Virus record (IMG/VR): IMGVR_UViG_3300032335_000499
From: a virus
Taxonomy: Duplodnaviria; Heunggongvirae; Uroviricota; Caudoviricetes
DNA length: 64,000 nt
Strand: one strand, 5' to 3'
Made by a program: the position numbers and the translations under genes. The notes beneath the pieces were generated by a model, which was given only the letters and a program-made list of their open reading frames with translations, was not told the origin of the DNA and did no database searches. The first letter of the stretch is position 1. Every line of letters begins with the position of its first letter. Shown in pieces: positions 2,338 to 64,000 of the stretch.

Positions 2338-5300
2338 ATGGCAGCTAACTTACTACCAATCACGTCGGACGGTGGATTTACATCTGGCGGAAATATCAAC
2401 TCATCCGGTGATCCAAGTTCGGCACCAAGTCTAAATGATTTCTTCAGTATAACTTCTGCGGCTAACTTTGCTATTGTAACTGACAATGCTAACACTGACC
2501 AAACTTGGACATTTGATGATACTGGTAACTTGACCTTGCCATTAGGCAGTATTGTTCATGAAACCAACATTCCAGACCAATCACTTAGTGGTAGTGCTAT
2601 TGCTTTAAAACCAATAGGTGGAACTACTGCCAATCAACAGTTATTAATATATCCAACAGCGGCTGATGGTGATCACATTCACTTGACAAGTGGCAACTTG
2701 TACGCAACCGAGTTGTTCTTAGGTAGTGATAACTTATATGTTAAGTTAGCAAACACAGGTAATGTTGTTATCAACAGTAATGATGGTAATAGTAGTAATG
2801 CTATGTGGACATTTGACACAGATGGTAACCTAACACTACCAGGTAATACTTTTGCAGTTAACTACGCTAACGGTACTCAAGTATCAATTGGTGGCGGTGG
2901 TGCTAATACAGGTAATGTGACATTTAGCGACCAAATTGTAATAGGCACTGGCAGCAATGATGGCAGTGGCGGATTGTATTTGGCTCCTGGAAATAATAGT
3001 ATTGCTAATAGTGCATTACAATACCTGAGAGTGCGCGGTGGTGATGTTGTCACACACATTCACCTTGACACAGGCAACAACGCCTTTTATGACCAATACT
3101 TTGGTGATGATGCCAAATATGTAAAACTTGAATTGGGTGATACAGGCAATGTCGTAATCGGTACTGATGATGCTAATGGTAATCAGTACAGTTGGTCATT
3201 TACTAGTGACGGTAATTTAATCCTAGCTGATGGCAACAGTATAATTACGAGCGTTGCTAATAGTTCTTTGGATCCAAATAATGCAAATGTCAGCACAATG
3301 GTCTTTACACCGGATCAAAATTATACCTCACAATCATTAGTTATTGACCCAACTGGTCCAAGTCATATTCACTTACGAGCACCAGGTGCAAATATTGACG
3401 AACCAGATGCTAATATATTCTTAGGTGGTGAAGATTCAAGTTTTGAAGTAGGTTACTATAACGGTGCCGCTCCTAACTTATACATTCACAGTAATAACAA
3501 CACTTGGACATTTGGAACTGATGGTAACTTAACTACACCAAGTAACTTAGTGATTGGCCCAGGTACCGGTAGTGGTTCAAGGATATTTCAATATGACGAG
3601 GGTCTAGAAATTGTAGGAGAAGGTGCTAACTCCGTTGTACTAATGGGTTGGACAGCAAATACAAGCGCACCCGATAGTGTTGCAACAATAGCAATGAATT
3701 ACCCAAGTGGTGGCGAAGGTAATATATTGATTGCTGTAGGTAATAACGCAACTACAGTAAACTACTGGCTCTTCGACAATACCGGTAATACAACATTCCC
3801 GCGTGATACTGGTCCTAATACGACTGATCCTATCTTAACTATTACAGGTGGTGCAAATCCAAAAATCTTGTCAGAAGATGCTAGTTTAGCAGGTCCTGCT
3901 AATCTTGAGATTACTGCTCTTAATACTATATTCACCGGCTCTAGTGGTAGCGCAATCAAGATTTATCCTGATGATGGTGAAGTTGCGTCTGATGGTAATC
4001 TTCAGATTTGGGCTAACTCGGGCGGCAATACTGAATACAGTTGGACATTTGACACAACTGGTATATTAACATTGCCTCAAGGTAGTCAAATAACTGAAAC
4101 TGCTAATACTAGTGTTAATATCACAGCCAATGCTAATACATGGGCCTTTGGTGTAGATGGTAACTTAACAGTCCCGGGTAGTTTGATTAATGATACTTCA
4201 ATAGTTCTATCAGCGCCCGCTGTTTTTAACATCTGCACTATTGCTACTGCCGGCAGTGGATATAATACTGGCAGCAGTTTGAAAGCAACTACTGGAGGTT
4301 CAGGCACAGGAATGACTGTAGGTATAGGCTACGGACTGAGTAATCAATTAACAAGTGTAAGTGTAGTAAATCCAGGTACAGGATATGTTAATGGTGATGT
4401 GATTACTGTATCTGAAGGCACCGGCGGAACATTTGTAATAACCAAATATAATGTATTAGCCAATCAAACCAATAATAACACTGTTCAAACTAATCTTACA
4501 TTTGCTAATAATACATTAACACTACCAATATACGGTGAAATAGCATCCAATGCTAATATGACATTGACTACTAATTATAGTAACGCAGGTAATACAAGTA
4601 GTTGGATACTTGACACAACTGGTAACTTAACTCTACCAGACACCACAAGCGTTCTTGCTAATGTAGGCATAACACTTGAAGCAAACGACACTGGAAATAT
4701 CACGGGATTAAGTGTAATCGGCGATTCCCACGCAAATCTATATGCTCATGGTAATATAACATTATATGCGAATACCGGTGGCGCGGGAAGTAGTTGGACA
4801 TTTGACAATACAGGTAACTTAGTATTGCCAGGCAATACTTTTGCAGTTAACTACGCTAATGGTACTCAAGTGTCCTTAGGTGGTGGCAACGTTACTTGGT
4901 CACAGATAGAAGATAAAGATGGTAACAGTGGACCTACTATAATAACCCTAGGTCAAAATGCAGGATTTGACGGTCAAGGCAATGCCGCAATAGCAATTGG
5001 TAAAAATGCTGGTCAAGGTGGTCAAGGTGATTCATCAATAACAATCGGAGAAGATGCTGGTGGTAACACTACTCAAGGCGCTAATGCAGTAGCAATTGGT
5101 AGATCGGCTGGTTTTGATGCACAGGGTGAGTATGCTGTGGCCATTGGTCAAAATGCTGGTTACGCCTTTCAAGGCCTCCAAACAGTGGCTGTTGGCCTAA
5201 ATGCTGGTTCAAACACACAAAGTAATTTGGCAGTGGCCATTGGTGTTAGTGCTGGTTCAAACACACAAGGTGATGCCGCAGTGGCCATTGGTGCGACGGC

Positions 5301-6327
5301 TGGTTTTGATGCACAAGGCAATCAGGCAGTGGCCATTGGGACCGGTGCTGGCGAAACCTCACAAGGTACTTACGCAGTGGCCATTGGTAGTGGCGCAGGC
5401 GCAAATGCTCAAGGTAACAACTCAATCATATTGAATGCTACTGGCGCAAACTTAAATCAAACTACAGCAAATACATTCACTGTATCACCAGTACGCAATG
5501 ATACTTCAAATATTGCTGAAGTTATGTTCTACAATGCTACTAGTAAAGAAGTTACATATGGTAACACAATAAGTATTGCTGGTAATGCTAACGTTGGTAA
5601 CTTGAGTACAACAACTGCAATCATTACAACCGGTAACATCACTACTATCAATAGCGGTCTATTACAGAATGGTAACTCAAACATCACTCTTACCGCTAAT
5701 GGTAATGTTTCAATTCAAGCAGCCGGTAGCAACGTTGAATTAGTAGTTACAAGTACTGGTGCTAACGTCACTGGTACATTTAATGCCACTGGCAATATCA
5801 CAGGATCATATCTAATATCAGCCCAGGCTTCAGGTGATGAAGGCGGTGAGATTTCGTTGGCACAACCACCAAATGGTAATCTATCAGGTGGTATTACTAT
5901 TGATGCATATCAAAATACATTGCGAATGTTTGAGCAAGGTGGAACTGCAAGAGGCTTATCAGTAGATATTGCTAATAGCCCGGCTGGTGGTGGCACTGCA
6001 ATAGGTTACAGAGATATTCCTCAAGTGGCTGCCGGTAACGTTACATTGGCTGCAACCGATGCAGGTAAACATTACTACTCAACTACTGCTGGTAACTTAA
6101 CGTTGACTATTCCATTGAACTCATCAGTTCCATTCACTACAGGTACAGCAATCAGTATCGTTGTTCAGGCGGCGGGCAATGTCTTAGTCAATGCAGCAAG
6201 CGGTGTTACATTGTATATGGCAGGTAACAGTACAGCGGCTAATCGTGTAGTTGGTGGTTATGGTATGGCAACACTACTGAAAGTAGCAAGTGATACTTGG
6301 TTCATTAACGGTGCAGGAGTAGCATAA
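2338..6327 (+). CDS. large tail fibre protein (1329 aa) with internal duplications and 13-aa tandem repeats
   Basis: Long ORF immediately downstream of previous fibre gene; about 10 copies of WTFD.(D/T)GNLTLP motif; duplicated segment PGNTFAVNYANGTQVS at aa ~165 and ~835; AVAIG.NAG..QG tandem repeats. Confidence 0.6.
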   Translation: MAANLLPITSDGGFTSGGNINSSGDPSSAPSLNDFFSITSAANFAIVTDNANTDQTWTFDDTGNLTLPLGSIVHETNIPDQSLSGSAIALKPIGGTTANQQLLIYPTAADGDHIHLTSGNLYATELFLGSDNLYVKLANTGNVVINSNDGNSSNAMWTFDTDGNLTLPGNTFAVNYANGTQVSIGGGGANTGNVTFSDQIVIGTGSNDGSGGLYLAPGNNSIANSALQYLRVRGGDVVTHIHLDTGNNAFYDQYFGDDAKYVKLELGDTGNVVIGTDDANGNQYSWSFTSDGNLILADGNSIITSVANSSLDPNNANVSTMVFTPDQNYTSQSLVIDPTGPSHIHLRAPGANIDEPDANIFLGGEDSSFEVGYYNGAAPNLYIHSNNNTWTFGTDGNLTTPSNLVIGPGTGSGSRIFQYDEGLEIVGEGANSVVLMGWTANTSAPDSVATIAMNYPSGGEGNILIAVGNNATTVNYWLFDNTGNTTFPRDTGPNTTDPILTITGGANPKILSEDASLAGPANLEITALNTIFTGSSGSAIKIYPDDGEVASDGNLQIWANSGGNTEYSWTFDTTGILTLPQGSQITETANTSVNITANANTWAFGVDGNLTVPGSLINDTSIVLSAPAVFNICTIATAGSGYNTGSSLKATTGGSGTGMTVGIGYGLSNQLTSVSVVNPGTGYVNGDVITVSEGTGGTFVITKYNVLANQTNNNTVQTNLTFANNTLTLPIYGEIASNANMTLTTNYSNAGNTSSWILDTTGNLTLPDTTSVLANVGITLEANDTGNITGLSVIGDSHANLYAHGNITLYANTGGAGSSWTFDNTGNLVLPGNTFAVNYANGTQVSLGGGNVTWSQIEDKDGNSGPTIITLGQNAGFDGQGNAAIAIGKNAGQGGQGDSSITIGEDAGGNTTQGANAVAIGRSAGFDAQGEYAVAIGQNAGYAFQGLQTVAVGLNAGSNTQSNLAVAIGVSAGSNTQGDAAVAIGATAGFDAQGNQAVAIGTGAGETSQGTYAVAIGSGAGANAQGNNSIILNATGANLNQTTANTFTVSPVRNDTSNIAEVMFYNATSKEVTYGNTISIAGNANVGNLSTTTAIITTGNITTINSGLLQNGNSNITLTANGNVSIQAAGSNVELVVTSTGANVTGTFNATGNITGSYLISAQASGDEGGEISLAQPPNGNLSGGITIDAYQNTLRMFEQGGTARGLSVDIANSPAGGGTAIGYRDIPQVAAGNVTLAATDAGKHYYSTTAGNLTLTIPLNSSVPFTTGTAISIVVQAAGNVLVNAASGVTLYMAGNSTAANRVVGGYGMATLLKVASDTWFINGAGVA
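4945..5415 (+). repeat. about 12 tandem copies of a 39-nt (13-codon) repeat inside the tail-fibre gene (..gcagtggccattggt..aatgctggt..caagg..)
   Basis: Nucleotide-level periodicity visible: gcagtggccattgg recurs at ~5088, 5136, 5231, 5280, 5328, 5382; encodes AVAIG.NAG..AQG units; creates spurious alternate-frame ORF 5201..5434. Confidence 0.6.
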
Positions 6328-7064
6328 TGGCAGGTGCAATGTTGGCTATGATGAATAATGTAGCAGGTGTGTCTTATACACCTCTTGCTGGTAGCCTTCA
6401 GTTTAACGGAAGTAGTCAGTATCTTAGTATGTCACCAGGCTCCGCATTAGGCACCGGTGCTTATACTATAGAAGGTTGGTTCTACAACAATAGTACCTAT
6501 GCTACTCAAAAGGCATTTGTTGCAACAGATCAATCAGGCGCACTAAGTCTATTCAACACTGATGCACAGTCATTTACACTAGACAAATACGGTGGTGGTG
6601 GTGCAAGAACTTATACTTTTCCCAATAACACTTTGCAAGTCAACAAGTGGCAGTATATCATACTCAATCGTAATGCCAGCACACAGGTAGAAACAATGTG
6701 GGTAGGCACTTTTGTCAATACCAGTGCTTATGTGACCTGCAATCGTGCTACCGGTGCCGCAGGCGGAACCAGTGTCAGTGGTGGAACACAGGTAAACAAT
6801 CTTGATTACACAGGTGTTTGTAACTGGATAGGTAGATTCTATGGTGGGTATTGGCCTGGCTTTATTACCAACCTTAGAATCACTGTTGGAACGGCTGTGT
6901 ATAACAGTACTAGTAGCACAGTCATAGCTCCTTCAGCGCCGTTAGCTAGCTTAGCTAATACCAAATATTTGATGCTGGGTGCGGCTGTAACCACAGATAC
7001 ATCAGGTACGCAAACTGTGACTAACAACGGCACAGTAACACAAACTGCCACTGTACCATTCTAA
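6327..7064 (+). CDS. LamG/ConA-like jelly-roll protein, probable tail-fibre tip / adhesin
   Basis: Start overlaps stop of the upstream fibre gene (ATAATGG); contains FNGSSQYLS...YTIEGWF motifs typical of Laminin_G_3-type domains; followed by bidirectional terminator. Confidence 0.5.
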   Translation: MAGAMLAMMNNVAGVSYTPLAGSLQFNGSSQYLSMSPGSALGTGAYTIEGWFYNNSTYATQKAFVATDQSGALSLFNTDAQSFTLDKYGGGGARTYTFPNNTLQVNKWQYIILNRNASTQVETMWVGTFVNTSAYVTCNRATGAAGGTSVSGGTQVNNLDYTGVCNWIGRFYGGYWPGFITNLRITVGTAVYNSTSSTVIAPSAPLASLANTKYLMLGAAVTTDTSGTQTVTNNGTVTQTATVPF

Positions 7065-11192: not shown

Positions 11193-11223
11193 TTTATATC
11201 TCCGTTTTCTCAGCTTATAATTA

Positions 11224-12293: not shown

Positions 12294-12363
12294 TAGTATT
12301 TAAGAGGATAGCACCCCTATAATATGCTTTTATTAAGTCAGTTCGTCTTGTTTAAAACACGGT

Positions 12364-12687: not shown

Positions 12688-12837
12688 TATTTTATCCTTT
12701 AAGTTTAGTCATAATATTGTTTCGTTCAGTGTCAGTCATGTTTGACCAACGAGCGATTTCGTCAAGTGTGCGACCACACCCCGCACACTTTTTAGTAAGA
12801 CTATCAATCTTACATAGTTGTATGCAGGGTGTAATCA

Positions 12838-14041: not shown

Positions 14042-14049
14042 TCATTTAT

Positions 14050-14616: not shown

Positions 14617-14674
14617 GATTCTTCCTTTCTATAATCTGTTATATATGGTTTTGGGTAGAATGTCAACTGTTAAG

Positions 14675-48189: not shown

Positions 48190-49287
48190 TCAATCAAAAA
48201 GATCAACCTTTTCCCAAGGGAGATACGATTTTCCAAAGTGTCCGTAGTTGGTAGTAGAACTATAGATTGGTGAGAATAACTCAAAACGTTCAATAATACC
48301 TTTAGGGGTTAGGTCTACGTTTTCACGAATCCACTTTTCAATATCACGATTTTCACTGTCACTATCGACATAAAGACTAGTAGGTTCTTCTACTCCGATT
48401 GCATAGCTAAGCTGCACTTGTGCCCACTTAGCCTTACCACTAGCAACGATATTCTTAGCAAGATAACGAGCCATGTATGCTGCTGACCGGTCTACCTTAG
48501 TAGGGTCCTTACCGCTAAATGCGCCGCCTCCGTGTGGTGCGTAGCCGCCGTAAGTATCTACTATGATCTTGCGACCAGTTAAGCCAGTGTCACCGTTTGG
48601 TCCACCAATGACAAATCTTCCAGTAGGGTTGATAAGGAATTTAGTATCTTTGTCAATGTACTCTTTCGGTAATAATTCAGTGATAAATTCTTGTACTGAA
48701 CTTCTAACGTCTTCGATAGCAATATCAGGACTATGTTGGGTAGAGCATACAATTTTATCAAACCGCTTGATGGTATTATCATCATTGTACTCAATAGTAA
48801 CCTGACTCTTTGCATCAGGTCCTAACCAAAGAGCATCAGCGTTCTTACGAGCAAACGAAAGTCCTTCTACAATACGATGACTATAGTGAAGTGCTGCGGG
48901 CATATACGTGTCGGTGTCACTACATGCATATCCAAACATGATCCCTTGATCTCCGGCGCCAAAAGTATCAGTACCTAATGCAATATCAGGACTCTGACCG
49001 TGCATCAAGTTAGTAATCGCTAGGTCCTTCCAGTGAAAGCCTTCTTGGTCATAACCGATATTTTTTACAGTCTTACGAACTAGATATTCAACATCAAGTG
49101 AATCAAGTTCACCCTTATATTCTCCTGCAATAATAACTTGGTCAGTAGTTACTAACGTTTCGCAAGCGCAACGAAGTTTGGGGTCTTTATTAGTCATGAA
49201 CAAGTCTAGAATTGCATCGCTAATAGCATCTGCAACTTTGTCTGGATGTCCTTCTGACACTGATTCACTGGTAAATAGGTATGACAT
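48190..49287 (-). CDS. metK: S-adenosylmethionine synthetase (MetK)
   Basis: MSYLFTSESVSEGHPDKVAD, GAGDQGIMFGYA, GGGAFSGKDPTKVDRSAAY hallmark blocks; start moved to MSYLF (AGGAAA SD). Confidence 0.8.
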   Translation of the reverse strand: MSYLFTSESVSEGHPDKVADAISDAILDLFMTNKDPKLRCACETLVTTDQVIIAGEYKGELDSLDVEYLVRKTVKNIGYDQEGFHWKDLAITNLMHGQSPDIALGTDTFGAGDQGIMFGYACSDTDTYMPAALHYSHRIVEGLSFARKNADALWLGPDAKSQVTIEYNDDNTIKRFDKIVCSTQHSPDIAIEDVRSSVQEFITELLPKEYIDKDTKFLINPTGRFVIGGPNGDTGLTGRKIIVDTYGGYAPHGGGAFSGKDPTKVDRSAAYMARYLAKNIVASGKAKWAQVQLSYAIGVEEPTSLYVDSDSENRDIEKWIRENVDLTPKGIIERFELFSPIYSSTTNYGHFGKSYLPWEKVDLFD

Positions 49288-49350
49288 ATTATTTCCTTTA
49301 TTAAGAATTATAGAATAGTTTGCAGGGATTTGCAATATGTTTTGGGTGAT

Positions 49351-54167: not shown

Positions 54168-54800
54168 TTAATAATTCCCCGATGCTAATACGATTTTACA
54201 AATATGTTCTAGGCGCTCAATATGTTCATATGCTCGCCAAGGAGTAGTGTCAATAGCAACTACTCCGTGCCCCTTAATGCCTACAATATCATAAGCGATG
54301 TTGCCTTCACTGTCAAGTCCTAAGTTATTATGACACTGTGTAGCAAGTTCTTCACTGATAGGAGGAACATCACCTACATTAGGAGCAACTCTAGTGTACC
54401 TGCCCAACTCAGGGAAGTGTGTCACTAGCTCGTTCAAGTTAATACCGGCATGCATTGCGGCAACACAGTAAGTAGGGTGAACGTGAACTACTACACGAAT
54501 GTCATCACTGTGCTGTCCCAGTTCTTTGAGTAAGCCAAAGTGCAATGGCAATTCACCGCTTGGCTGTAACTCGCTAGAGATAGCAGTGTAGGGTAGAATC
54601 TTACAGATTGTTTCAGTACCAGTGTCCACTAGCCCAATCTTTTTGAATTGATCGGGCTGTAGTGTCTGCTTTCTTACACCACTAGGTGTGATATAGAAGT
54701 GGTCACGGTCATGATGGCGAATACTGATGTTGCCGTCGCGGCTAGTAATCCAGTTACGAGCATAGGAATCCTTTAAAATATCGCAAATTGTTTCTAACAT
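54168..54800 (-). CDS. class II aldolase/adducin-family protein (FucA / MtnB-like)
   Basis: GNISIR, ITPSG, VVHVHPTYCVAAM, GHGVVAID align with E. coli FucA blocks. Confidence 0.55.
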   Translation of the reverse strand: MLETICDILKDSYARNWITSRDGNISIRHHDRDHFYITPSGVRKQTLQPDQFKKIGLVDTGTETICKILPYTAISSELQPSGELPLHFGLLKELGQHSDDIRVVVHVHPTYCVAAMHAGINLNELVTHFPELGRYTRVAPNVGDVPPISEELATQCHNNLGLDSEGNIAYDIVGIKGHGVVAIDTTPWRAYEHIERLEHICKIVLASGNY

Positions 54801-57109
54801 TATAATTTACAACTTTCGCAATCACCATCATCTTCAAAGAAGTCAATAACTTCTAGTGGTGCTTCATCTTCTTCTTCTTTAGAACCCTTCTTATTAATCA
54901 AGCTGTAATAGAGAGTCTTAATTCCCCACTTATGAGCAAGCATCAAGTTCTTTGCGATAAGAGTTGTTGGAACTTTACGATCAGGGAAGTGAGCAGGGTT
55001 ATAGAATGTGTCAGTACTGATTGACTGATCCATATAAGCAGCAAGAACAGCAGAGGTCTTGAGATAGCCTACGCAATCTGTTTGGTCCCACATAAGCTGA
55101 TACTTGTTCTTCAACTTCTGATATTCAGGAACAACCTGAATGAACGAACCAGCCTTACTTTCCTTTACAGAAATCAAGCTCATGGGCATAGCAATTCCGT
55201 TAGTAGAATTGATAACTACTGAACTTGATTCTACTGGAGCAATTGCACCAACAGTAGCATTACGCACACCGTATTCTACCATGTCCGCACGAAGCGTTTC
55301 CCATTCAAGTTCGGGAGTAAAGTCAGCTAGTTCGTTAGCTCCATTTGAGCGAAGCTCCCACGAAAAGATTCCGTTACCATAACGAGTCTTGTCACTGTCT
55401 AAGCACTTGCCACGTTCTTTAGCGAGTTCAACATTAGCTTCCATCAAATAATATGTTTGATGTTCTGCCCAACTCTTTACGTCTTGTAGTGCTTCTGATT
55501 CACCATACTTGTATCCACGCTTGGCATGCCAGTAAGCAAGATTAGTTACTCCAATGCCAATTGGACGAATCTCATCATTAGATAGCTTACTCTGAATTGA
55601 CAAGAAATCTTGATAGTCTAGGATGTTATTCAAGCTGCGTAATAGAATACGACAAGCTCTACGCATATCTTCTGGGTTTCTAAACGCACCCCAATTCATA
55701 CTCCCGAGGGTACACAGTGCGATACGGCCAGCTGGATCATCTAGGCGCTTGAATGACTTTGTAGGAAGAAGAATCTCTACGCAAAGGTTTGACTGATAGA
55801 TAGTATGATACTCAGGGTCAAACGGACCTTGATTCATTACATTATCAATAAACACTAGATAGATTCTGCCAGTGTCAGTGCGTTCCTTGAGAATACCGCC
55901 CTTGAATACTTCCTCAGCACTCATAGTCTTCTTACGCAAGTCTTTACGCTTCTCATACTTCACATAAAGTTCTTCAAACTTTGCTGTGTTCTGATAGAAG
56001 GCTTCATACAATTCAGGCACTTCGTTTGGATCGAAGAATGTAATGTTCTCTTTGTTCTTGAAACGCTTCCAAAAGAATGCACTAAGAACAACACCATAGT
56101 CCATGTGACGAACACGAGTTTCTTCGGTGCCCTGATTGTTTTTGAGAACGATCAAGTCATCAAACTGGTAATGCCAGATAGGGTAGAACACAGTAGCACT
56201 TGCATTACGAATGCCGCCTTGTGAACAAGAGCGCAAGTCACCGAACCACTTCTTCAGAAACGGAATCATACCAGTATGCATGATTTCGCCCCCTCGAATA
56301 GGCGAACCGAGGGAGCGAAGCCTGCCGATTTCTAAGCCAATGCCAGCTCGTTTGCTAGCATATTTAGCCATCATTTCTCCAGAAGCGAAAATCGAATCCA
56401 AATCATCATCACTGCGAATAAGTACGCAACTACTAAATTGCTTTGTAGGAGTGCCCAAACCAGCGAGAACAGGAGTAGCGAGAGTAAACAAACCATCACT
56501 AGCTGCATTGTAATATTCTTTAACAAGCTTAAGTCGTGTAGATGGACCTTCACTATGGAAGATAGTTGCAGCCGCAATCAAGTAGCGAACTTGCGGGGTT
56601 TCGTAGATTTCTTTTGTTGCTCTATTGCGAACAAGATATTTTTCAATCATCTGTTCGATTGCTGCGTATGAGTATTCCTCATCCTTTTCATGGTCAATGA
56701 AGTCATTCATCTTGTTCCAATCGTCTTCGGAATACCATTCTAAAAGTTCATTAGTATATAGGCCTGTTGCTATATTAGTCTTAACGATTTCATACAAGTG
56801 TGGTACTTGGTAGTCTCCGTAAACATCTTTGCGAAGCATGGAGAGTCTTTGTCTACCTGCAACGTACTGATAGTTAACGTGTCCAACGTCAGGGTTACTT
56901 TCAACATCAATCAAGTCTACAATAGCTCTAAGAGTGATTTCATCAATCTCTCGTGTAGTGATGCCATCATAAAATTGTGGATGTGCCTTGATTTCTATCA
57001 TAGATTGACTTACATCAGCCGTGCCATTGCACACCTTTGTAATCTGTTGTTGCCACTTTTCCAGGGCAAGCGGCTCTGTGTTACCTGATCGTTTCTTTAC
57101 ATTAATCAT
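54800..57109 (-). CDS. nrdA: ribonucleotide reductase class Ia large (alpha) subunit
   Basis: 769 aa; ATP-cone N-terminus, catalytic NLCVEI / C-terminal CESC redox pair. Confidence 0.85.
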   Translation of the reverse strand: MINVKKRSGNTEPLALEKWQQQITKVCNGTADVSQSMIEIKAHPQFYDGITTREIDEITLRAIVDLIDVESNPDVGHVNYQYVAGRQRLSMLRKDVYGDYQVPHLYEIVKTNIATGLYTNELLEWYSEDDWNKMNDFIDHEKDEEYSYAAIEQMIEKYLVRNRATKEIYETPQVRYLIAAATIFHSEGPSTRLKLVKEYYNAASDGLFTLATPVLAGLGTPTKQFSSCVLIRSDDDLDSIFASGEMMAKYASKRAGIGLEIGRLRSLGSPIRGGEIMHTGMIPFLKKWFGDLRSCSQGGIRNASATVFYPIWHYQFDDLIVLKNNQGTEETRVRHMDYGVVLSAFFWKRFKNKENITFFDPNEVPELYEAFYQNTAKFEELYVKYEKRKDLRKKTMSAEEVFKGGILKERTDTGRIYLVFIDNVMNQGPFDPEYHTIYQSNLCVEILLPTKSFKRLDDPAGRIALCTLGSMNWGAFRNPEDMRRACRILLRSLNNILDYQDFLSIQSKLSNDEIRPIGIGVTNLAYWHAKRGYKYGESEALQDVKSWAEHQTYYLMEANVELAKERGKCLDSDKTRYGNGIFSWELRSNGANELADFTPELEWETLRADMVEYGVRNATVGAIAPVESSSVVINSTNGIAMPMSLISVKESKAGSFIQVVPEYQKLKNKYQLMWDQTDCVGYLKTSAVLAAYMDQSISTDTFYNPAHFPDRKVPTTLIAKNLMLAHKWGIKTLYYSLINKKGSKEEEDEAPLEVIDFFEDDGDCESCKL

Positions 57110-57552
57110 TCGTTGCCTATTTTCTGTTTTAATGAACTTATATTTAATTGATTTGTCACAGTGAAGTCTGCAAGAGATGTATTTAATACCGACTCGGGCC
57201 AGTAATTCATCACATATTTTGCGTCATCAACTAAAACTAATACTACATTTTCTCTATTATAATCTATTGCATCAACAAAGTCAATGTCGTTGATACCCAA
57301 TAGCATTAGCGTGTATACCATTCCCAAAGCTCGGGCATACTTGCAATAATCATTATCACTAATAAGTTCCCAAGGTCCAGGCCAATCTACTACATCTGCT
57401 GGATGCAGGTAGTGAGAACTGATTGGTGCTCGTTGCCAAAATCTATCGACCTCAACACATATGGTTTGCAAGTCAGACTCTTGTAAATTATCTCTAAGTT
57501 TGTGCCACTCGCGGAGACGAGTGTAATAATCTAATAGGAATACATTAATCAC
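57106..57552 (-). CDS. hypothetical protein (148 aa; GTG start in track)
   Basis: ORF, 4-nt overlap with nrdA. Confidence 0.35.
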   Translation of the reverse strand: MINVFLLDYYTRLREWHKLRDNLQESDLQTICVEVDRFWQRAPISSHYLHPADVVDWPGPWELISDNDYCKYARALGMVYTLMLLGINDIDFVDAIDYNRENVVLVLVDDAKYVMNYWPESVLNTSLADFTVTNQLNISSLKQKIGNE

Positions 57553-57565
57553 AGTGTACTTATCA
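57546..57565. repeat. 20-bp direct repeat taatcacagtgtacttatca (copy 1); second copy at 58798..58817
   Basis: Identical 20-mers flank gene 57591..58754; TATAAATT late-promoter-like box adjacent (revcomp of 57571-57578). Confidence 0.55.
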
Positions 57566-57590
57566 TATGTAATTTATACCGATTAGATAA

Positions 57591-58754
57591 TTATAAATCC
57601 CCTGTATTTGTTGATGGGAATTGGCGTGTGTTTCCGGGCCAGATGATGCGGACAGTGCCGCCTCCACCATTGCCTCCGGCTCCCCATTCAGTATAGTCTT
57701 GAATGTTATTGTCGTATACGGCCCCGCCCATGCCGCCGCCAGCGCCATAGCCGCCGCCTCCTGCAGAGCCGGTGTATCCGAAGCCTCCTGTCGCACCGCC
57801 AGAGCCGCCTAATCCAGCCTGACCCGGCGCAGCGCCGCCGGCACCGTTCGTGCCTTGTCCAAGCGATCCTACCCCGCCGCCTCCGCCGCCGCCGTAGTAA
57901 AAAACGTATTGACCCTGGACACTATCGCTGAAGCCTCCACCGCCTCCACCGCCGCCGCCCGCGCCAGCCGATCCAGACGAACCTGCTGCGCCAGAGCCTC
58001 CCTGCCCGCTGTATCCACCAGCTCCGCCGCCGCCGCCGTTAGTACCACCAGCGCCACCCTGTCCGCCAGTTCCAACTACGACAGTGCCGCCAGCGCCCCT
58101 TGCGGCATACACCCAACTACCGCCGTTTGCTGAGACAAGAGATGTTGCGCTTCGAACAAGCCTGCTATTCCCGCCGTCTCCGACCTCCGAGCTTCCGCCA
58201 TTTATACCAGCTCCACCTGCGCCAACCACAACAGTTAATGTCTCTCCTGGGGTTACGGAAATATTGTTCGTATAGGCAAGTGCGCCGCCGGACCCGCCGC
58301 CGCCATTGAAGATATTTTGTCCGCCGCCGCCGCCGCCGACTGCCACAGCCGAAATGCTTGTAACACCCGCAGGGACAACAAAACTAAATGTGCCAGCAGT
58401 AGTGTATTGCTGCTGCCCCTGAGCAATGGGCGTCACGCTGTTCGACGCGGCACTTGCAGGCCCGGTACCAGCGGAGTTGGTTGCTGTAACTGTAAATGTA
58501 TAAGATGTGTTAGTAGTCAATCCAGATACAGTAATAGGACTACTTGCACCACTAGCAGTTATGTTGCCCGGACTTGAAGTGACGGTGTAGCTTGTAATAG
58601 CGGAAGTTCCGGAGTTAGCGGGGGCGGAAAAACTTACTGAAGCGGTTGTAGATCCTGTAGCAGTAGCACTTGCACCTGTTGGTGCTCCAGGCGGGAAGGT
58701 AGTTGCAAAGCTAATTCCACCAGAAAATTTTACTCCAGAAAACGAAAATGGCAT
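57591..58754 (-). CDS. virion-associated protein: N-terminal fibronectin type III domain plus C-terminal glycine-rich domain
   Basis: FN3 signature (..SYTVTSSPG...TNTSYTFTVTATNSAG..) followed by poly-Gly tracts and C-terminal GGGGTVRIIWPG. Confidence 0.5.
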   Translation of the reverse strand: MPFSFSGVKFSGGISFATTFPPGAPTGASATATGSTTASVSFSAPANSGTSAITSYTVTSSPGNITASGASSPITVSGLTTNTSYTFTVTATNSAGTGPASAASNSVTPIAQGQQQYTTAGTFSFVVPAGVTSISAVAVGGGGGGQNIFNGGGGSGGALAYTNNISVTPGETLTVVVGAGGAGINGGSSEVGDGGNSRLVRSATSLVSANGGSWVYAARGAGGTVVVGTGGQGGAGGTNGGGGGAGGYSGQGGSGAAGSSGSAGAGGGGGGGGGFSDSVQGQYVFYYGGGGGGGVGSLGQGTNGAGGAAPGQAGLGGSGGATGGFGYTGSAGGGGYGAGGGMGGAVYDNNIQDYTEWGAGGNGGGGTVRIIWPGNTRQFPSTNTGDL

Positions 58755-58797
58755 TGATTATCCTTTATGTATTAGCTTTCATTATTGTATTTAGTCA

Positions 58798-58817
58798 ATA
58801 ATCACAGTGTACTTATC
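58798..58817. repeat. 20-bp direct repeat copy 2 (taatcacagtgtacttatca)
   Basis: see 57546..57565. Confidence 0.55.
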
Positions 58818-58985
58818 ACCACTTATTGAGCGGACAGGTTCCTTGTTCTTCTGAGGTTTGCACTGAAAGTGGAATATCATTAAGTCTACATTTTGGATAG
58901 GGTAGTTCAATGTTTTCTTCACAAGTGGTACAGAATGAAATTCTTATTGCTTGAGTTGCAGGGTCAATGTTGTTTCCTAATTGTG

Positions 58986-60188
58986 TCATACTCCGTATTT
59001 CCCTCTAAATGCAGCAAAGTTTAATGCAACCTGTTCTGCTGTCAGTGCGACATTATACACTTGTATAGCGGGTATGCTACCTGCAAATTTTGCGTTCCAA
59101 GAGTTGCCTATTGTATCAACCGGGTTATTATTTCCTGATGTAGAGTTTGCCACATTACTGTCTAATACCCCGTCTACATACATAGCCATCGTACTATTAG
59201 AATTGTTTACCCAAGTTAGCAAATGCCAGTTATTATCGTTGACAGTTGTACCAACGCCTAACTTCTGTGCCCATGCAGAGTTTTGATAAGTCCAATATGC
59301 AATCTTTCCGCTGTTTACACATAAAGCTGAGTATACTGGTCCGCCACTTAAGTTGGACAGTATTGAACCTTGACCAAGACCGGTTGCATCAGTAGTAGTT
59401 TTAACCCAAGCACTAACAGTCCATGGCAGATTTCCATTACCTAAACTAATTGTAGGGATAGTTAAGAAGTCGGTTGATCCGTTAAAGCTAAATGTATTAT
59501 TAGATGCGTAGGTTAAACTATTGATAGTTATTGTTCTACTTCCAGTAACATCTAGCAGTGCATTAGTTGAGCTTCTGGAGCCAAACGGACCTACAAACGG
59601 AGCAGTAAAGTTACTAGATGAACTAATTAATACCTGAGGGTTTTTATAAAGAATGAATCCACTAGTAGCTAAACTAGTTCCGTTACATGCACCTGGATAT
59701 AATAACATTCTACATGTGCCAGTAGATCCGGCCTGAGCAGTAAATGTAGCCGTTTTCCAAACGCCGGTTACTGTCGGCGTAGGATCGGCTGCTGAGTTAC
59801 TTACTGCCGATTCAAAATTAGCGAGATAGTTGGTAACAGGATATCCGCCAGCACCCGGGGAAATATAATAATCAAATGTAAACGTTGCCCACTGACCAGC
59901 AGTAATACTAACATCATTGCCGTGATAATAGCAGCCGGCGGCTGCAACTAAATCATATCGGTATACTACATCATTATTCGTAATAGAGTAGTTATCAAAT
60001 GTTCCTGAATATGTTCGCTGAAACGTTCCGGTGCCTTGAACTTGAAAGGCAACATTATTGCTACCATCGGGAATAGGGACCGCAAATTGGTTTGATACGG
60101 CTGCTCCTCTATACGACTGCGGATCATACATATCATAACCAAACAGTAATCCATCAGTTGTTATTTTAGGACCGGATGCTACGCTCAT
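58986..60188 (-). CDS. LamG/ConA-like jelly-roll domain protein, paralog 1 (putative adhesin / receptor-binding protein)
   Basis: C-terminal YN(R/V)ALTAEQV..NF.A.RG.YGV signature; internal NNTFSFNGSTDFL motif; shared N-terminus MS(V/L)ASGP. Confidence 0.55.
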   Translation of the reverse strand: MSVASGPKITTDGLLFGYDMYDPQSYRGAAVSNQFAVPIPDGSNNVAFQVQGTGTFQRTYSGTFDNYSITNNDVVYRYDLVAAAGCYYHGNDVSITAGQWATFTFDYYISPGAGGYPVTNYLANFESAVSNSAADPTPTVTGVWKTATFTAQAGSTGTCRMLLYPGACNGTSLATSGFILYKNPQVLISSSSNFTAPFVGPFGSRSSTNALLDVTGSRTITINSLTYASNNTFSFNGSTDFLTIPTISLGNGNLPWTVSAWVKTTTDATGLGQGSILSNLSGGPVYSALCVNSGKIAYWTYQNSAWAQKLGVGTTVNDNNWHLLTWVNNSNSTMAMYVDGVLDSNVANSTSGNNNPVDTIGNSWNAKFAGSIPAIQVYNVALTAEQVALNFAAFRGKYGV

Positions 60189-61507
60189 AAGTTGAATCTC
60201 CCGCGGATAGCGTTGAAGTTTTGTGCTACTTCAGCATCAGATAGTGCCCTAGTGTAGGCAGTAACCATAGCCATATCACCCTGCCAAAATCCTGCATAAC
60301 CATTACCAATGGTGATGTTCGCTGCGGTGGTTGCGAGAGTTCCGTATGGATTGGATGCAGTGCTACTAAGACTTCCGTTGATAAACCACTTATATTGAGT
60401 TGTGCTTCTAACTGCACACATCACATTCCATACATTCCTGGGAGTTGCGGGGCTTGATACTCCAACATATGGTTCTGCATTAGCTCCCGCATTTCCGTAA
60501 TACTGACTAATAGAGTCTCCCTGTTCATGCGTCCAAGTGCCATAACCACCGTATGCTTGGTCCCATGGATTTCTTCTGCCTGAAGTATAAGAATGTCTCA
60601 TTACTATCTGCAATGTTTGTGCAGAGGAAAAGTTCAACGAACTAGTATTAATAACAGTTCCATAGTTACTAGTACCGTTAAATGTATAGGAGCTGGTGCT
60701 AGTAGAAGGCAAGTCTAAGAATGTGCAATTGTTATTGTTGCCACTTATATCATACCAAGTGTTACCTGCATTTTGCAGTAGTTCTTGAATACTAGGCTCA
60801 GTACCATCACATAAATCTACCCGTGGTTGATAGAATTGTAATCTTGTTGTGTTATCAGGGCAATAATATAGATATGTTCTATGTATACTCGTAGTTGAAT
60901 TAGAATTCCACTTTAAATCGCCGGAACCAATATTACAACCATTAATGTTACCTGCTCTACCGTTTACTGTATAGTAACCGGTATTTGGATTTCTACCGGT
61001 AAAAGTAGTATTAGCTGGATATATATGACCTACAAACAAGTACCAAGTATTTTGTGCTAATATCCCTGTATTGCTGCACTCCCAATATGGATTGTCTGCT
61101 GCCGTGCTATCATCTGTTTTACGCACTCCGCCGTTACTTCCAGTACCTAAATAAAAGGTGCCGCCTGATGTACTTGATGTTCTACGCACCCATACTGAAA
61201 AACGATATAGTTGAGTATTGTCTATAGCAAAATCTGTTGTATTCCAGCCACCGTCATCATTTGTTTCTGCAAGCGGTCTTGCTTCCCAAACAACTGCATT
61301 GTTTCCCCAAGGATTGCTTGCGACTACTCTTTCGTTCTCAGCGGTTTGACCGTTTTGAGTATAACCAGTAACGCCTCCCGAACCGACAGTCCAGTTGTTC
61401 CAGTTGATGAGAGAGCGATTACCCACATTTGACTGTGGGTTAGTAGCGTCAAGCATTAACGCTAGATTGCTCGTACTAGCAAAAAGAGGACCGGATGACA
61501 CGCTCAT
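60185..61507 (-). CDS. LamG-like protein, paralog 2
   Basis: YTRALSDAEVAQNFNAIRGRF C-terminus; 4-nt overlap with neighbours. Confidence 0.55.
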   Translation of the reverse strand: MSVSSGPLFASTSNLALMLDATNPQSNVGNRSLINWNNWTVGSGGVTGYTQNGQTAENERVVASNPWGNNAVVWEARPLAETNDDGGWNTTDFAIDNTQLYRFSVWVRRTSSTSGGTFYLGTGSNGGVRKTDDSTAADNPYWECSNTGILAQNTWYLFVGHIYPANTTFTGRNPNTGYYTVNGRAGNINGCNIGSGDLKWNSNSTTSIHRTYLYYCPDNTTRLQFYQPRVDLCDGTEPSIQELLQNAGNTWYDISGNNNNCTFLDLPSTSTSSYTFNGTSNYGTVINTSSLNFSSAQTLQIVMRHSYTSGRRNPWDQAYGGYGTWTHEQGDSISQYYGNAGANAEPYVGVSSPATPRNVWNVMCAVRSTTQYKWFINGSLSSTASNPYGTLATTAANITIGNGYAGFWQGDMAMVTAYTRALSDAEVAQNFNAIRGRFNL

Positions 61508-62670
61508 ACTCCATATCTCCCTCTGAGAGCGTTGAAGTTTTGCTGTATCTCTTGAGCAGAGAGTACCCTATTATAAACTTTTGCAACACTTATTTGACCA
61601 TTAAAGACTTCAGTGTTTACCCCATAGCACCCAATTAGTAAATTACTTGCGGTTGCATTAGCGGGAGAATATGCAGAACCGGATGATCCTACTAGATTAC
61701 CATTAACATAAAGATAAATTCCAGTAGAACCAAAAGTAGCAACACAATGCCACCATGATCCATTTGTACATAGTGGCGTGCTTGAAGTTGCTCCGTTACC
61801 ATTAGAATAAGCCCAAAGTTCACCATTCTGTATTCTATATCTATACCCACTATTTTCATTTTTAGAAATTATATTTCCTAGTCCGCTAGAACTAGTCGGG
61901 TTAACCCAAGATTCTAATGTAAGAGCAGAGGATAGTTGTAATGCAGTTGAATTTCCACCATCAACATAATTACTAGAACCATTAAAACTAAATGTATTAT
62001 TAGAAGCATATGTTAAGCTAGTAGCAGTAAGGGTGTTTTGGCCAGTAGGGTCTAATAATGCTTGTGTGGTTGAGCGAGTGCCATTGACAAATGGAGTGGC
62101 ATACGTACCAAGTTCTAATTGAAATCCACAATACTGAATTGTGTATCCGCCCGTCAATGAACCGGAGTGTATCGGGAAATAATCTAATGAAGTACCAGCA
62201 GTACACGGTCCAGTAGTTGAATATCTTACCCACTCAGTAGTATATGTTGGATTCCAATCGCCGGTAACCGACTGGTCAACTCCATTCGATCTCCACAACT
62301 GAGCGTTGTTAAGATTAGAGCTAGCGGTTGGGCCGCCGACAAGTCTAGCATAATATGAAAAGGTATGAGTGCCCGTTGTCGCTATTGTACTTGCAATTGC
62401 CCAATATTTATAGCCAGTCGTGCCAGTAGTATATTGCATTACTGCGGGAGAACCAATTGGATTTGGAACATTAGTAACATAATTGTATGCAGCGCCTCCG
62501 GAACCATCATAGTTATAACTTAATACAAAACTAGATCCGTTCCAATTAGCGTACGGGTTTGGTACTAGGTTTGTAGTGGGGGCGCCTTTCCAGGAACGGC
62601 CCGTATTGCTCATATCATAAACAAGTACTAATCCATTAGTAACTATAGAAGGAGAGTGACCGAGTGCCAT
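61504..62670 (-). CDS. LamG-like protein, paralog 3
   Basis: MALGHSPSIVTNGLVLVYD N-terminus; YNRVLSAQEIQQNFNALRGRYGV C-terminus. Confidence 0.55.
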   Translation of the reverse strand: MALGHSPSIVTNGLVLVYDMSNTGRSWKGAPTTNLVPNPYANWNGSSFVLSYNYDGSGGAAYNYVTNVPNPIGSPAVMQYTTGTTGYKYWAIASTIATTGTHTFSYYARLVGGPTASSNLNNAQLWRSNGVDQSVTGDWNPTYTTEWVRYSTTGPCTAGTSLDYFPIHSGSLTGGYTIQYCGFQLELGTYATPFVNGTRSTTQALLDPTGQNTLTATSLTYASNNTFSFNGSSNYVDGGNSTALQLSSALTLESWVNPTSSSGLGNIISKNENSGYRYRIQNGELWAYSNGNGATSSTPLCTNGSWWHCVATFGSTGIYLYVNGNLVGSSGSAYSPANATASNLLIGCYGVNTEVFNGQISVAKVYNRVLSAQEIQQNFNALRGRYGV

Positions 62671-63344
62671 TAGATGCCATACCTCCCTCGAGTCGCATTA
62701 AAGTTTTGTAGTACTTCTGCGGCTGATAATACTCTGTTGTACACCCTGCAAATAGACAATGCACCGTTGTAAAAATATCCAGTTCCCGTACCATACGCAC
62801 CGATAAACATACCTGAACTATTAGTGCTGATTGTTCCGGTTTGTGCATCTGAATTTACTTGGACACCGTTAATATAAAGTATTCTACTACCAGATGTATA
62901 AGTCCCTACAACCTGAAACCAATTAGATGTATTCATAAATGATGCAGTAGTTGTAGAAAGATTTGTGACACCCCCAATATTCATTCTCCATTGTATCAAA
63001 CCGCCTTCTTGAAACAATGCATATTGAGAATTTACAGTTCCTTTTTCGAACCAGAATCCATTTTGTGTAGTTGCGTTTGTCTTAACCCATACTTCAACTG
63101 TAGGAGTTTGTGTGTTAAGTGCAGTGTTGTCACTTGCGCTTGCAAAGTCATTTACGCCATCAAACGTAAATGATCCCAAATTGCTACTTGAATATACGGG
63201 ACCATTAGTTAGGGCAAAATTAAAACCACTACTAGTGGCATCGTTCCATTGGGTACCCGACCCCGAATATGATCTAGGATTCCCTGCATCTACGCATAGT
63301 ACTAATCCGTTAGTTACGATAGAAGGAGAGTGTGCTAGAGCCAT
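62670..63344 (-). CDS. LamG-like protein, paralog 4 (short, single domain)
   Basis: MALAHSPSIVTNGLVLCVD N-terminus nearly identical to paralog 3; same C-terminal motif. Confidence 0.55.
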   Translation of the reverse strand: MALAHSPSIVTNGLVLCVDAGNPRSYSGSGTQWNDATSSGFNFALTNGPVYSSSNLGSFTFDGVNDFASASDNTALNTQTPTVEVWVKTNATTQNGFWFEKGTVNSQYALFQEGGLIQWRMNIGGVTNLSTTTASFMNTSNWFQVVGTYTSGSRILYINGVQVNSDAQTGTISTNSSGMFIGAYGTGTGYFYNGALSICRVYNRVLSAAEVLQNFNATRGRYGI

Positions 63345-63347
63345 GTA

Positions 63348-63617
63348 TTATACCAGAGGAATATCAATAGTCCAGGCTTCAGTGGACATTAGTTCTAGTG
63401 CTTCATCATGCGTCATATATGGGCCTTTTGTTGTCAATGCTGCTACTGAGCTAGGAACACCATTGGCTGTTATCCACTTGACAATTGTTTCAGTTCCATC
63501 TACACTGATACGAAGTGTATCAATTGATGTTTGTTCTATCTGTTCAAAGTCCAACGATGACGCTTCGCTCAAATCAAGCGTAACATATGTTAGACCGTTT
63601 TCTTCTGTTAAAATCAT
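63348..63617 (-). CDS. hypothetical protein (89 aa)
   Basis: ORF between LamG paralogs. Confidence 0.3.
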   Translation of the reverse strand: MILTEENGLTYVTLDLSEASSLDFEQIEQTSIDTLRISVDGTETIVKWITANGVPSSVAALTTKGPYMTHDEALELMSTEAWTIDIPLV

Positions 63618-63988
63618 AATCCGTATCTCCCTCTAGTGGCATTGAAATTCTGTGTTACTTGGTCAGCCGTTAGTGCAGTGTTATACATCATAACGTTTGA
63701 AATGAGACCTTGCCAAGCATATGCTCCTCCGGGTTGCCACCAGCCTACACGCAAGCCAACTGACCAATCAGCAGTTCCGGTAGTTGATTGCTGACCCTGA
63801 TAGATACCCTGCCTATAAATTGATACATTTGAACCGTTATATGACACGCAATAACATCCCCAAGTTCCGAGTGGGATACTTGTAGGCTTGCTATAATAGT
63901 ATTCTCCCGTTGCTCCCCCGTGAGTGTAGAACCAACTGTTGTCACCATACCAATAAAATGAAGTGTTAGTTCTTGCTGCTACTGGCAT
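63614..63988 (-). CDS. LamG-like protein, paralog 5 (may extend beyond window end)
   Basis: YNTALTADQVTQNFNATRGRYGL C-terminus. Confidence 0.4.
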   Translation of the reverse strand: MPVAARTNTSFYWYGDNSWFYTHGGATGEYYYSKPTSIPLGTWGCYCVSYNGSNVSIYRQGIYQGQQSTTGTADWSVGLRVGWWQPGGAYAWQGLISNVMMYNTALTADQVTQNFNATRGRYGL

Positions 63989-64000
63989 TCTGTTTTCAGC

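Follow-up and report, generated by a model that had tools for sequence, protein, structure and literature searches.

A 64,000-nucleotide (nt) stretch of DNA from a virus of the Caudoviricetes (IMG/VR record IMGVR_UViG_3300032335_000499), referred to in its entirety as the window, ends in an array of paralogous genes encoding proteins with LamG domains, and all array genes called within positions 58986-64000 lie on the minus strand. The five paralogs in the window score 49 to 89 bits against the Pfam family Laminin_G_3 (PF13385; gathering score, 27.6; E values of 7e-13 to 5e-25), all five match PHROG 8510, annotated "virion structural protein" (E values of 3e-9 to 1e-25), and matches to PHROG 24074 reach an E value of 3e-30; the relationship between them is therefore paralogy and not chance resemblance, as had been proposed in an earlier interpretation of this DNA made without database searches (the sequence-only reading). 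The Laminin_G_3 match covers residues 236-388 of the 400-amino-acid (aa) paralog (E value of 1.7e-17); the 440-aa paralog matches the same family with an E value of 7.4e-13 and PHROG 8510 over residues 42-437, and the 224-aa paralog gives E values of 2.9e-21 for Laminin_G_3 and 1e-25 for PHROG 24074 and 8510. The five genes had been described as consecutive, with a fifth member of at least 124 aa; their positions were correct, but an 89-aa acidic open reading frame (ORF) interrupts the series and the fifth gene runs off the end of the window.

What lies beyond that end is provided by L001, an ENA scaffold of 42,990 nt that was located by exact-protein look-up and matches the window with 100% identity over 11,331 nt; an independent Logan assembly, L002, is in turn 100% identical to L001 over 11,934 nt. 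The fifth gene is complete on the scaffold (217 aa; L001 9078-9731) and beyond it is a sixth LamG gene of 219 aa, the 219- and 217-aa products scoring 39.7 and 68.2 bits against a cutoff of 27.6. In the copy cut by the window end, the Pfam match begins at profile position 45 of 151, and there is no in-frame stop within the 12 nt upstream of the first ATG. In transcription order, a fibre-like gene of at least 3,323 codons is followed by the 219- and 217-aa LamG genes, the 89-aa ORF, the 224-, 388-, 440-, and 400-aa LamG genes, a 57-aa cysteine-rich ORF, an FN3/glycine-rich gene (387 aa), a 148-aa ORF, and nrdA. With six LamG genes behind a giant fibre gene, the array thus makes up the distal portion of a fibre operon. 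Dozens of repeats (TAGTVTTAAQPNITSVGTLTSL; ...TTAAQPNITSVGTLTSL...) make up the giant fibre, together with two near-identical globular inserts of approximately 180 aa that contain NLATP.NSTDAATKQYVDD, and it ends in the C-terminal domain ...EFVSVSATQWYTLNATYG; its PHROG matches are to 6942, "tail fiber protein" (E value of 8e-7), and 30390. A motif of its C terminus, TQWYTLN(A/T)TY(G/A), is common to the 850-aa fibre of the more distant loci L016 and L019 and to the cut upstream ORF of L017. Coordinates are collected in Table 1.

Table 1. Array genes, junction repeats, fibre-like genes, and other features (window positions unless scaffold L001 is named)
Feature	Position	Strand	Remarks
LamG paralog, 400 aa	58986..60188	-	N-box, N-terminal beta-domain type N3, LamG core type C5; last LamG gene of the array
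LamG paralog, 440 aa	60185..61507	-	N-terminal domain type N2, core type C4
LamG paralog, 388 aa	61504..62670	-	N-box 1-31, predicted CBM4/22-like beta-sandwich ~33-200, LamG core ~235-360, C-box and helix 361-388
LamG paralog, 224 aa	62670..63344	-	minimal single unit (N-box, LamG, C-box)
Acidic ORF, 89 aa	63348..63617	-	not LamG; embedded between the 217- and 224-aa LamG genes
LamG paralog cut by window end	63614..64000	-	C-terminal 128 codons of the 217-aa gene; ORF from first ATG, 63614-63988
Junction direct repeat, 89 nt	60168..60256 and 61487-61575		C-box codons, GGGAG, overlapping ATG, first codons of next gene; 73% identity
N-box DNA repeat, 47 nt	62624..62670 and 63298-63344		85% identity
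Giant fibre-like gene, at least 3323 aa	L001 1-8416, beyond window end		directly upstream of the LamG array
Fibre-like protein, 722 aa	149-2317	+	repeat segments in common with giant fibre
Fibre-like protein, 1329 aa	2338-6327	+	repeat segments in common with giant fibre
Weak LamG protein, 245 aa	6327-7064	+	LamG E value of 4e-7; FNGSS-like block; neither N-box nor C-box
Cys-rich ORF, 57 aa (CxxC...C...CPLNKW)	58816..58989	-	ATGA overlap with stop of 400-aa gene; called as a gene in L001
FN3 + Gly_rich_2 protein, 387 aa	57591..58754	-	Pfam fn3 E value of 6.8e-13, Gly_rich_2 E value of 5.8e-8
20-nt perfect direct repeat TGATAAGTACACTGTGATTA, upstream copy	58799..58818	-	flanks FN3/Gly-rich insertion
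20-nt repeat TGATAAGTACACTGTGATTA, downstream copy	57546..57565	-	overlaps GTG start of 148-aa gene
Class II aldolase-like gene	54168-54800	-	wedged between nrdA and nrdB
S-adenosylmethionine (SAM) synthetase (MetK), 381-aa ORF	48190-49335	-	~52% identity to bacterial and phage MetK
RimK-like glutaminyl transferase	44374-45270	-
Glycosyltransferase	42267-43253	-
RtcB RNA ligase	21021-22238	-
Cell-wall hydrolase	11315-11917	-

Every LamG gene of the array codes for a single repeat unit, which cyanomyoviruses concatenate within large proteins annotated as virion structural. The paralog alignment bears out the shared N-terminal peptides described earlier, MAL(G/A)HSPSIVTNGLVL in the 388- and 224-aa genes and MSV(A/S)SGP in the 400- and 440-aa genes; the C-terminal signature is also real but looser than first written, the C-box reading Y[NT].[AV]L[ST]..[EQ][IV]..NF.A.RG[RK][YF][GN][VLI], with the 400-aa gene ending in YNVALTAEQVALNFAAFRGKYGV and the 440-aa gene in YTRALSDAEVAQNFNAIRGRFNL. 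The internal block F.F[ND]G is present, and in the form F.FNGSS.Y, which had been attributed to all five genes, it is found in four of them, the equivalent LSFDGVDDY of the fifth lying beyond the window end. The nature of the boxes emerges from cyanophage S-PM2 p176, a 1,058-aa protein annotated as a virion structural protein in which two LamG units stand in tandem in one chain: between the units it reads ...IYPRALTPAQVFQNYNATREKYTG-linker-LIVKNGLILNLDAG..SY...FDGSNDY..., and it ends in ...IYNRALTAQEVLQNFNALRTRFGL directly before the stop. Similarly, an internal stretch (137-358) of the 892-position PHROG 24074 profile aligns with residues 7-222 of the 224-aa paralog. Since the array boxes delimit internal units of S-PM2p176, they are the edges of a repeat unit and not the special terminal anchors that the sequence-only reading had taken them to be: the N-box is the start of the LamG unit, and the C-box is its last strand plus terminal helix. 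Concatenation of the S-PM2p176 kind does not occur in the array, where every unit has its own start and stop and the boundaries are kept in independent assemblies. Three of the six LamG genes (388, 400, and 440 aa) carry an extra beta-domain between the N-box and the LamG body; that of the 400-aa gene is homologous to that of the 388-aa gene (the two proteins are 29% identical over their full length), and that of the 440-aa gene is of a different type.

Pfam matches, structural models, and structural comparison agree on lectin-type jelly-roll folds, the beta-sandwich of the Laminin_G_3/ConA-like superfamily, as had been expected from the motifs. The 388-aa protein, modelled with 63 homologs, gave a predicted local distance difference test (pLDDT) score of 87.6, with two beta-sandwiches, a C-terminal helix at residues 372-386, and a confident N-box strand at residues 14-19 (pLDDT of 91 over residues 11-20). 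When residues 1-210 were modelled alone, residues 33-200 remained confident, residues 1-31 fell below a pLDDT of 50, and the N-box strand was gone; because its confidence is lost without the LamG domain, the N-box would seem to supply the LamG sandwich with its first strand, and residues 33-200 are probably a domain inserted after it. The boundary fits a library-wide search in which the domain match of the longer homologs P0128, P0130, P0131, P0134, and P0135 begins at approximately query residue 32. The inserted domain is predicted to be a beta-jelly-roll like those of solved structures of carbohydrate-binding module (CBM) families 4, 22, and 61. Profile-search matches of the 388-aa protein to PDB sequences are confined to residues 203-386, and neither Pfam (CBM_4_9 or similar) nor PDB sequences gave a match over residues 1-230; the relationship to CBM4/22 is thus at the level of fold only. 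Pentraxins and several phage tail and baseplate proteins are among the structural neighbours, and the top matches of the array proteins in sequence and structure are noncatalytic modules. A motif scan of the array proteins found no GH16 (E.D..E) or PL7 catalytic motifs, and their N termini, to which no signal-peptide predictor was applied, have no hydrophobic stretch of the signal-peptide kind. They look, from their sequences, like noncatalytic lectin modules that remain cytoplasmic until lysis, and they may bind carbohydrate, by analogy with the work of Sakka et al. 2019 as cited in PMC12220804.

The junctions between the genes are organized in a manner that suggests coupled translation. Several genes had been said to overlap by 4 nt (ATGA); this is so at three junctions, but the 224- and 388-aa genes overlap by 1 nt. 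Without exception among the six genes, the C-box R-G-R/K is written (A/C)G(A/C) GGG A(G/A)(A/G), so that a Shine-Dalgarno-like GGGAG formed by C-box codons sits approximately 8 to 10 nt ahead of the following gene's overlapping start (e.g., at 60185-60210, 61504-61530, and 63614-63640). GGG is used for 6 of 6 C-box glycine codons, against 16 of 204 (8%) elsewhere in the LamG array genes, and in related loci 32 of the 37 LamG genes that directly precede another gene carry a Shine-Dalgarno-like motif in their last 30 nt. The codon bias, the motifs, and the overlaps therefore lend sequence support to the translational coupling that had been suggested from the overlaps, and the C-box appears to be constrained twice over, both in the protein that it encodes and in the ribosome-binding site that it supplies to the gene that follows, a modest case of a coding sequence under two levels of constraint. 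Fusion of the units by frameshifting or read-through into an S-PM2p176-like polyprotein was considered and rejected because the junctions are of different types (ATGA, 1-nt overlap, and 3-nt gap), no slippery heptamer occurs at the junctions that were read, and a Shine-Dalgarno-like motif and start codon are present at every junction. Scans for promoter-like and terminator-like sites add no usable evidence: sigma-70-like sites in 57000-64000 are in modest excess (26, against a shuffled mean of 16.7 with a standard deviation of 4.2), and of the five terminator-like sites (4.5 expected, the chance rate), four fall within array genes, three of these on the coding strand, and no site lies between genes. 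The T4 late promoter TATAAATA was discarded as a candidate signal, as it is found six times in the window, its chance frequency (6.0 expected).

Relatives of the array are abundant in environmental sequence. Homologs of the 388-aa paralog number more than 2,000 in metagenomic data, at least 120 of which are full length at 43 to 90% identity, and a search of 1.84 billion clusters with its N-box and CBM-like part gave 587 representatives (E <= 1e-3); at tblastn sensitivity, the CBM-like N-domain was not found in cultured phages, and megablast against 50,697 phage records found no near-identical cassette DNA. A long fibre gene followed by LamG genes with the same boxes occurs at 14 related metagenomic loci, several of them T4-like, and the number of LamG genes ranges from one (L013) through two (L026), three (L005, L007, L014, and L017), four (L016 and L019), six (the window, L001), eight (L003, L009, and L012), and nine (L011) to approximately ten (L015). 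T4-type gp13/gp15 (gp14) genes stand beside the arrays of L007, L013-L017, and L026, and one array adjoins glycosyltransferases. Among close relatives the ends of the array are stable and the middle gains or loses whole genes (412, 530, 122, 238, 232, and 204 aa). Genes that are retained can be very similar, the window genes being 98% (217 aa), 95.5% (89 aa), 96% (224 aa), and 99% (400 aa) identical to their L003 orthologs; the 89-aa ORF, for which neither Pfam nor PHROG gave a match, is kept at the same array position in L003 and L011 with 95 to 98% identity.

The variation within units is concentrated in the LamG core. In the family of the 388-aa protein, positional entropy is approximately 1.0 bit over residues 1-235, rises to 2.5 to 3.0 bits in the hypervariable core (residues 240-360), and falls again in the conserved C-box. 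The window protein is 98.5 to 99% identical to P0004 and P0005 in the N-domain and 24% identical in the core, and over 1,953 pairs the identities of the two parts are barely correlated (r = 0.27). Compared as DNA, L001 and L022 show 97.4% identity from the fibre end across the 219- and 217-aa genes and over the 89-aa ORF. The match breaks off approximately 33 nt inside the 224-aa gene, resumes (at 94.6%) 63 nt ahead of the stop codon of that gene, extends over the N-domain of the 388-aa gene, and is lost a second time at approximately residue 233, which is the FSFNGSSNY block. These core differences represent replacement rather than fast drift, with breakpoints at the conserved boxes. Clustering at 60% identity gave 32 core types among 51 genes, in which at least eight core types share N-domain type N1 and core type C6 has two N-domain types as partners. 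Retained units are under purifying selection: the ratio of nonsynonymous to synonymous substitution rates (dN/dS) of retained orthologs is 0.02 to 0.23, against 0.03 for nrdA, with values of 0.04 to 0.22 for the 400-aa paralog and 0.04 to 0.19 for the 89-aa ORF. The synonymous rate (dS), on the other hand, varies 40-fold among neighbouring array genes (0.025 to 1.0), which indicates mosaic histories. In copy number, in core diversity, and in the replacement of whole cores between near-identical genomes, the locus thus behaves as the diversification locus that it had been supposed to be. The 89-nt and 47-nt repeats listed in Table 1 could serve as substrates for unequal crossing-over. A diversity-generating retroelement or shufflon was rejected as the source of variation: 57500-64000 has no template/variable repeat pair and no significant inverted repeats, and all genes are on one strand, the rest of the window not having been scanned for a reverse transcriptase. 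The direct repeats of this region are limited to the box junctions, runs of glycine codons, and a 20-nt repeat at the insertion described below.

Beyond the array, the fibre-like 722- and 1,329-aa proteins at the start of the window have repeat segments in common with the giant fibre, and a looser version of the fibre-then-LamG pairing therefore recurs at 2338..7064 on the plus strand. The downstream partner of this pair had been said to have the same LamG motifs; the FNGSS-like block and a weak LamG match are indeed present, but neither of the boxes is. The 1,329-aa protein also gives weak, subthreshold matches to B_lectin and Ricin_B at approximately residues 129-183.

On the other side of the array, the cassette is neighboured by the FN3/glycine-rich gene, the 148-aa ORF, nrdA, an aldolase_II gene, nrdB, and glutaredoxin. 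The sequence-only reading had placed the cassette next to an FN3/glycine-rich gene and baseplate/PAAR genes; the former adjoins it, but no baseplate/PAAR genes were found among the ORFs tested beside the cassette or among ten ORFs at 7307-15553 in a scan of the window that was not exhaustive. The FN3/glycine-rich gene is a 1.23-kb insertion relative to L003, L011, and L012, in which the 57-aa gene abuts the 148-aa gene. Two exact copies of TGATAAGTACACTGTGATTA flank it in the window, where none is expected by chance, and a single copy is found at the uninterrupted junction of the relatives. The arrangement has the look of a duplicated target site or of a junction formed at microhomology; alternatively, the repeat may have been a substrate for deletion in the relatives. 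Relatives also have Gly_rich_2 fused to LamG, in proteins of 741 aa (L003 13160-15385), 713 aa (L007 12595-14736), and 540 aa (L025 3274-4896), and the 440-aa gene is 84% identical to residues 302-741 of the L003 protein, which has an N-terminal Gly_rich_2 domain. Shuffling of Gly_rich_2 between LamG-fused and FN3-fused forms links the glycine-rich protein functionally to the LamG array. The 57-aa cysteine-rich ORF has no family match in Pfam or PHROG. Small cysteine-rich ORFs of this kind (approximately 57 to 104 aa), with ends of the C(P)(L/I).KW type, also occur within or at the end of arrays at L011 5705-5899, L015 3040-3354, and L017 3983-4422, and these ORFs may be zinc-ribbon-like. Further genes of the window are listed in Table 1; nrdA has its best identity (59%) with Xanthomonas, Ralstonia, and Stenotrophomonas phages, and the nrdA and SAM synthetase matches are uninformative with regard to the host.

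We suggest, with a probability of roughly 0.55, that the array encodes modular, cotranslated, lectin-like accessory adhesins of a fibre or host recognition cluster which evolve by gain and loss of units and by core swapping. According to this reading, the LamG genes would be translated together with the giant fibre through translational coupling; the conserved junction DNA would act as a substrate for unequal or homologous recombination, giving rise to unit turnover and core swaps; the LamG proteins would be nonenzymatic, glycan-binding accessory adhesins assembled onto the fibre or tail; and these adhesins would set or broaden the range of host surface polysaccharides that the phage can hold. 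Glycan binding, location on the fibre or tail, and an effect on host range are what we infer from the gene layout and predicted folds. Several observations weigh against this proposal. The array of the window phage adjoins genes of nucleotide metabolism (nrdA and nrdB) and not neck or baseplate genes; Pfam and PHROG scans recognized no docking domain in the stand-alone units; in the literature searched we found no mass-spectrometric support for S-PM2p176 or for gp050 and gp051 of the Flavobacterium phage immuto, and the "structural protein" labels of S-PM2, immuto, and PHROG 8510 are annotations. In addition, it is model confidence and not coordinates that places the N-box strand in the LamG sandwich, and all relatives except phage immuto are metagenome assemblies, in which chimeric assembly can inflate mosaic patterns in paralog-rich regions. 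Countering the last point, the window arrangement is 100% identical in two independent assemblies, and the L003 arrangement is present in four records.

A more specific version of the adhesin proposal, which we regard as doubtful, is that the giant fibre acts as a scaffold for separately encoded, variable lectins that dock noncovalently, so that each virion would carry several glycan specificities and the repertoire would be redealt by unequal crossing-over at the C-box/ribosome-binding-site junctions. Docking might take place via the conserved, otherwise disordered first ~10 residues, although this is purely hypothetical. If this is correct, such a fibre would bear many monomeric lectins rather than one tip domain, a separate mode of arranging receptor-binding proteins, and would parallel in a phage the combinatorial lectin "bet hedging" seen in the Streptomyces umbrella toxins.

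Of the explanations that do not involve an adhesin, the likeliest, though still unlikely, is that the array encodes soluble, nonvirion lectins made late and binding host envelope glycans or debris at lysis, for example, to mask receptors on dead cells or to exclude competitors. The stand-alone units without a recognizable anchor domain and the metabolic genes that adjoin the array would suit such proteins, and diversifying turnover is expected of any protein that contacts variable host glycans; however, co-orientation, overlap, and embedded ribosome-binding sites tie the LamG genes to the fibre gene, homologous units form part of proteins with a virion structural annotation, the structural neighbours include several tail and baseplate proteins of phages, and N termini devoid of a signal-peptide-like hydrophobic stretch leave no apparent route to the envelope before lysis. 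A role in fibre assembly or as tip adaptors, after the fashion of gp38 of the T-even phages or Tfa of Mu and P2, seems to us improbable. The genes for gp38 and Tfa directly follow the fibre gene and are swapped along with the fibre tips, and the array does lie immediately downstream of a fibre gene, in a pairing that recurs at 2338-7064 and at many other loci. Six to ten paralogs per fibre, however, far exceed the needs of a chaperone; the array does not covary with the fibre tip, because relatives with different arrays have giant fibres of identical C-terminal sequence; Pfam and PHROG scans give only LamG-type families and no gp38/Tfa homology; and the structural matches are carbohydrate-binding modules (LamG and CBM).

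It is more improbable still that the proteins are enzymes of the glucanase/lyase kind that depolymerize capsule or exopolysaccharide. The ConA-like superfamily includes GH16, GH7, and PL7 enzymes, and phage depolymerases are often multiplied and swapped, features that would speak for an enzymatic array; however, catalytic motifs of GH16 and PL7 are lacking, the top matches are noncatalytic, and Laminin_G_3 is the lectin-type branch of the superfamily. Finally, the view that this is an ordinary paralog family, in which the boxes reflect conservation of the fold and phages differ through gradual divergence, is right in that the boxes are fold edges but is already disfavoured and scarcely credible in the face of decoupled N-domain and core identities, sharp breaks in DNA identity at the boxes, copy numbers from 1 to ~10, and the 40-fold spread in dS between neighbours.

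If the accessory-adhesin interpretation is correct and the proteins are borne on the virion, the array would provide a compact and naturally modular system for examining how large aquatic myoviruses retarget host glycans, with defined unit boundaries, identifiable recombination points, and a natural library of cores (32 types among 51 genes and more than 2,000 homologs of a single paralog). It would also assist in interpreting the "host recognition clusters" that are poorly annotated in the abundant T4-like phages of the environment, and the box-delimited cores could be used as parts for the engineering of host range.

The sequence-only reading had regarded the architecture as without a described counterpart, which is too strong. 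Fibres of phages and other viruses are already known to contain LamG domains (PMC12220804), host recognition regions to contain ConA-type domains (PMC7029224), and tails to carry CBM accessory proteins (PMC4742702), and the gene layout of phage immuto is known as well; in the literature searched, coverage of which was incomplete, we found no description of a tandem array of stand-alone LamG genes in phages, that is, of separate, translationally coupled LamG genes behind a giant fibre in copy numbers from 1 to ~10, of wholesale core swapping at the unit boxes, or of a C-box whose codons also provide the following gene with its ribosome-binding site. The same unit, at approximately 30 to 39% identity, is found in LamG proteins of T4-like cyanophages (S-PM2p176, S-RSM4, Syn1, and S-RIM44; PHROG 8510 and 24074), with an N-box (..IV.NGL.L.LDA....SY), an F.FDG..DY block, a LamG core, and a C-box (IYNRAL...E..QNFNA.R.R[YF]G.), and these proteins sit in clusters of large fibre-like structural genes. 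Cyanophage proteins of 1,000 to 1,500 aa bear the units as tandem fusions at the C terminus, whereas in the array there is one gene per unit, three units carry the extra N-terminal beta-domain, and close relatives differ in how many units they have. At the T-even distal tail-fibre locus gp37/gp38, recombination at conserved motifs is said to swap adhesin specificity (a finding attributed to Tetart and coworkers in 1998), and the array resembles that locus, in which variable receptor-binding segments are reportedly bounded by short conserved recombination motifs and the adhesin gene lies just downstream of the fibre. The T-even gp38 has an unrelated fold (a sandwich of glycine-rich motifs) and is a single adhesin rather than an array, and our Pfam and PHROG scans found no sequence similarity to it in the array proteins.

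Among cultured phages, the myovirus vB_FspM_immuto of Flavobacterium (NC_055915) has a comparable layout in which the tail-fibre-like gp052 is followed, with a 1-nt overlap, by stand-alone LamG genes gp051 and gp050. These genes encode proteins of approximately 220 to 230 aa that are annotated as structural, gp051 being 34% identical to the 224-aa paralog over its full length; unlike the window, immuto has only two units and no unit of the CBM-like insertion type. The giant fibre and variable array are likewise reminiscent of the host recognition cluster of pelagimyophages and cyanomyophages, a hypervariable island with tail-fibre genes between VrlC and gp14, where proteins with ConA-type domains have been noted in the structural region (PMC7029224). 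The arrays of L007, L013-L017, and L026 resemble this cluster in their gp15/gp14/gp13 neighbours, whereas the window array abuts nrd genes, and tandem stand-alone LamG units and core swapping are not described in that report. CBM accessory proteins also decorate phage adhesion devices, such as BppA of Tuc2009 and other CBM-decorated baseplates (PMC4742702), but these belong to phages of Gram-positive hosts and have other architectures, without tandem gene arrays. Fibres of polinton-like viruses carry up to seven Laminin_G_3 repeats that have been interpreted as glycan-binding modules for host attachment (PMC12220804); in contrast to the array, the repeats lie in a single polypeptide, often accompanied by a Peptidase_S74 chaperone, in viruses of eukaryotes. 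A final parallel is found outside the phages, in UmbA of the Streptomyces umbrella toxins, whose paralogs combine a conserved N-terminal part with a diversified lectin (Laminin_G_3 and CBM_4_9 are among the types) and dock to one scaffold, giving a combinatorial target range (PMC13274773); its trypsin-like docking domain has no homology in the array, and the resemblance is one of function only.

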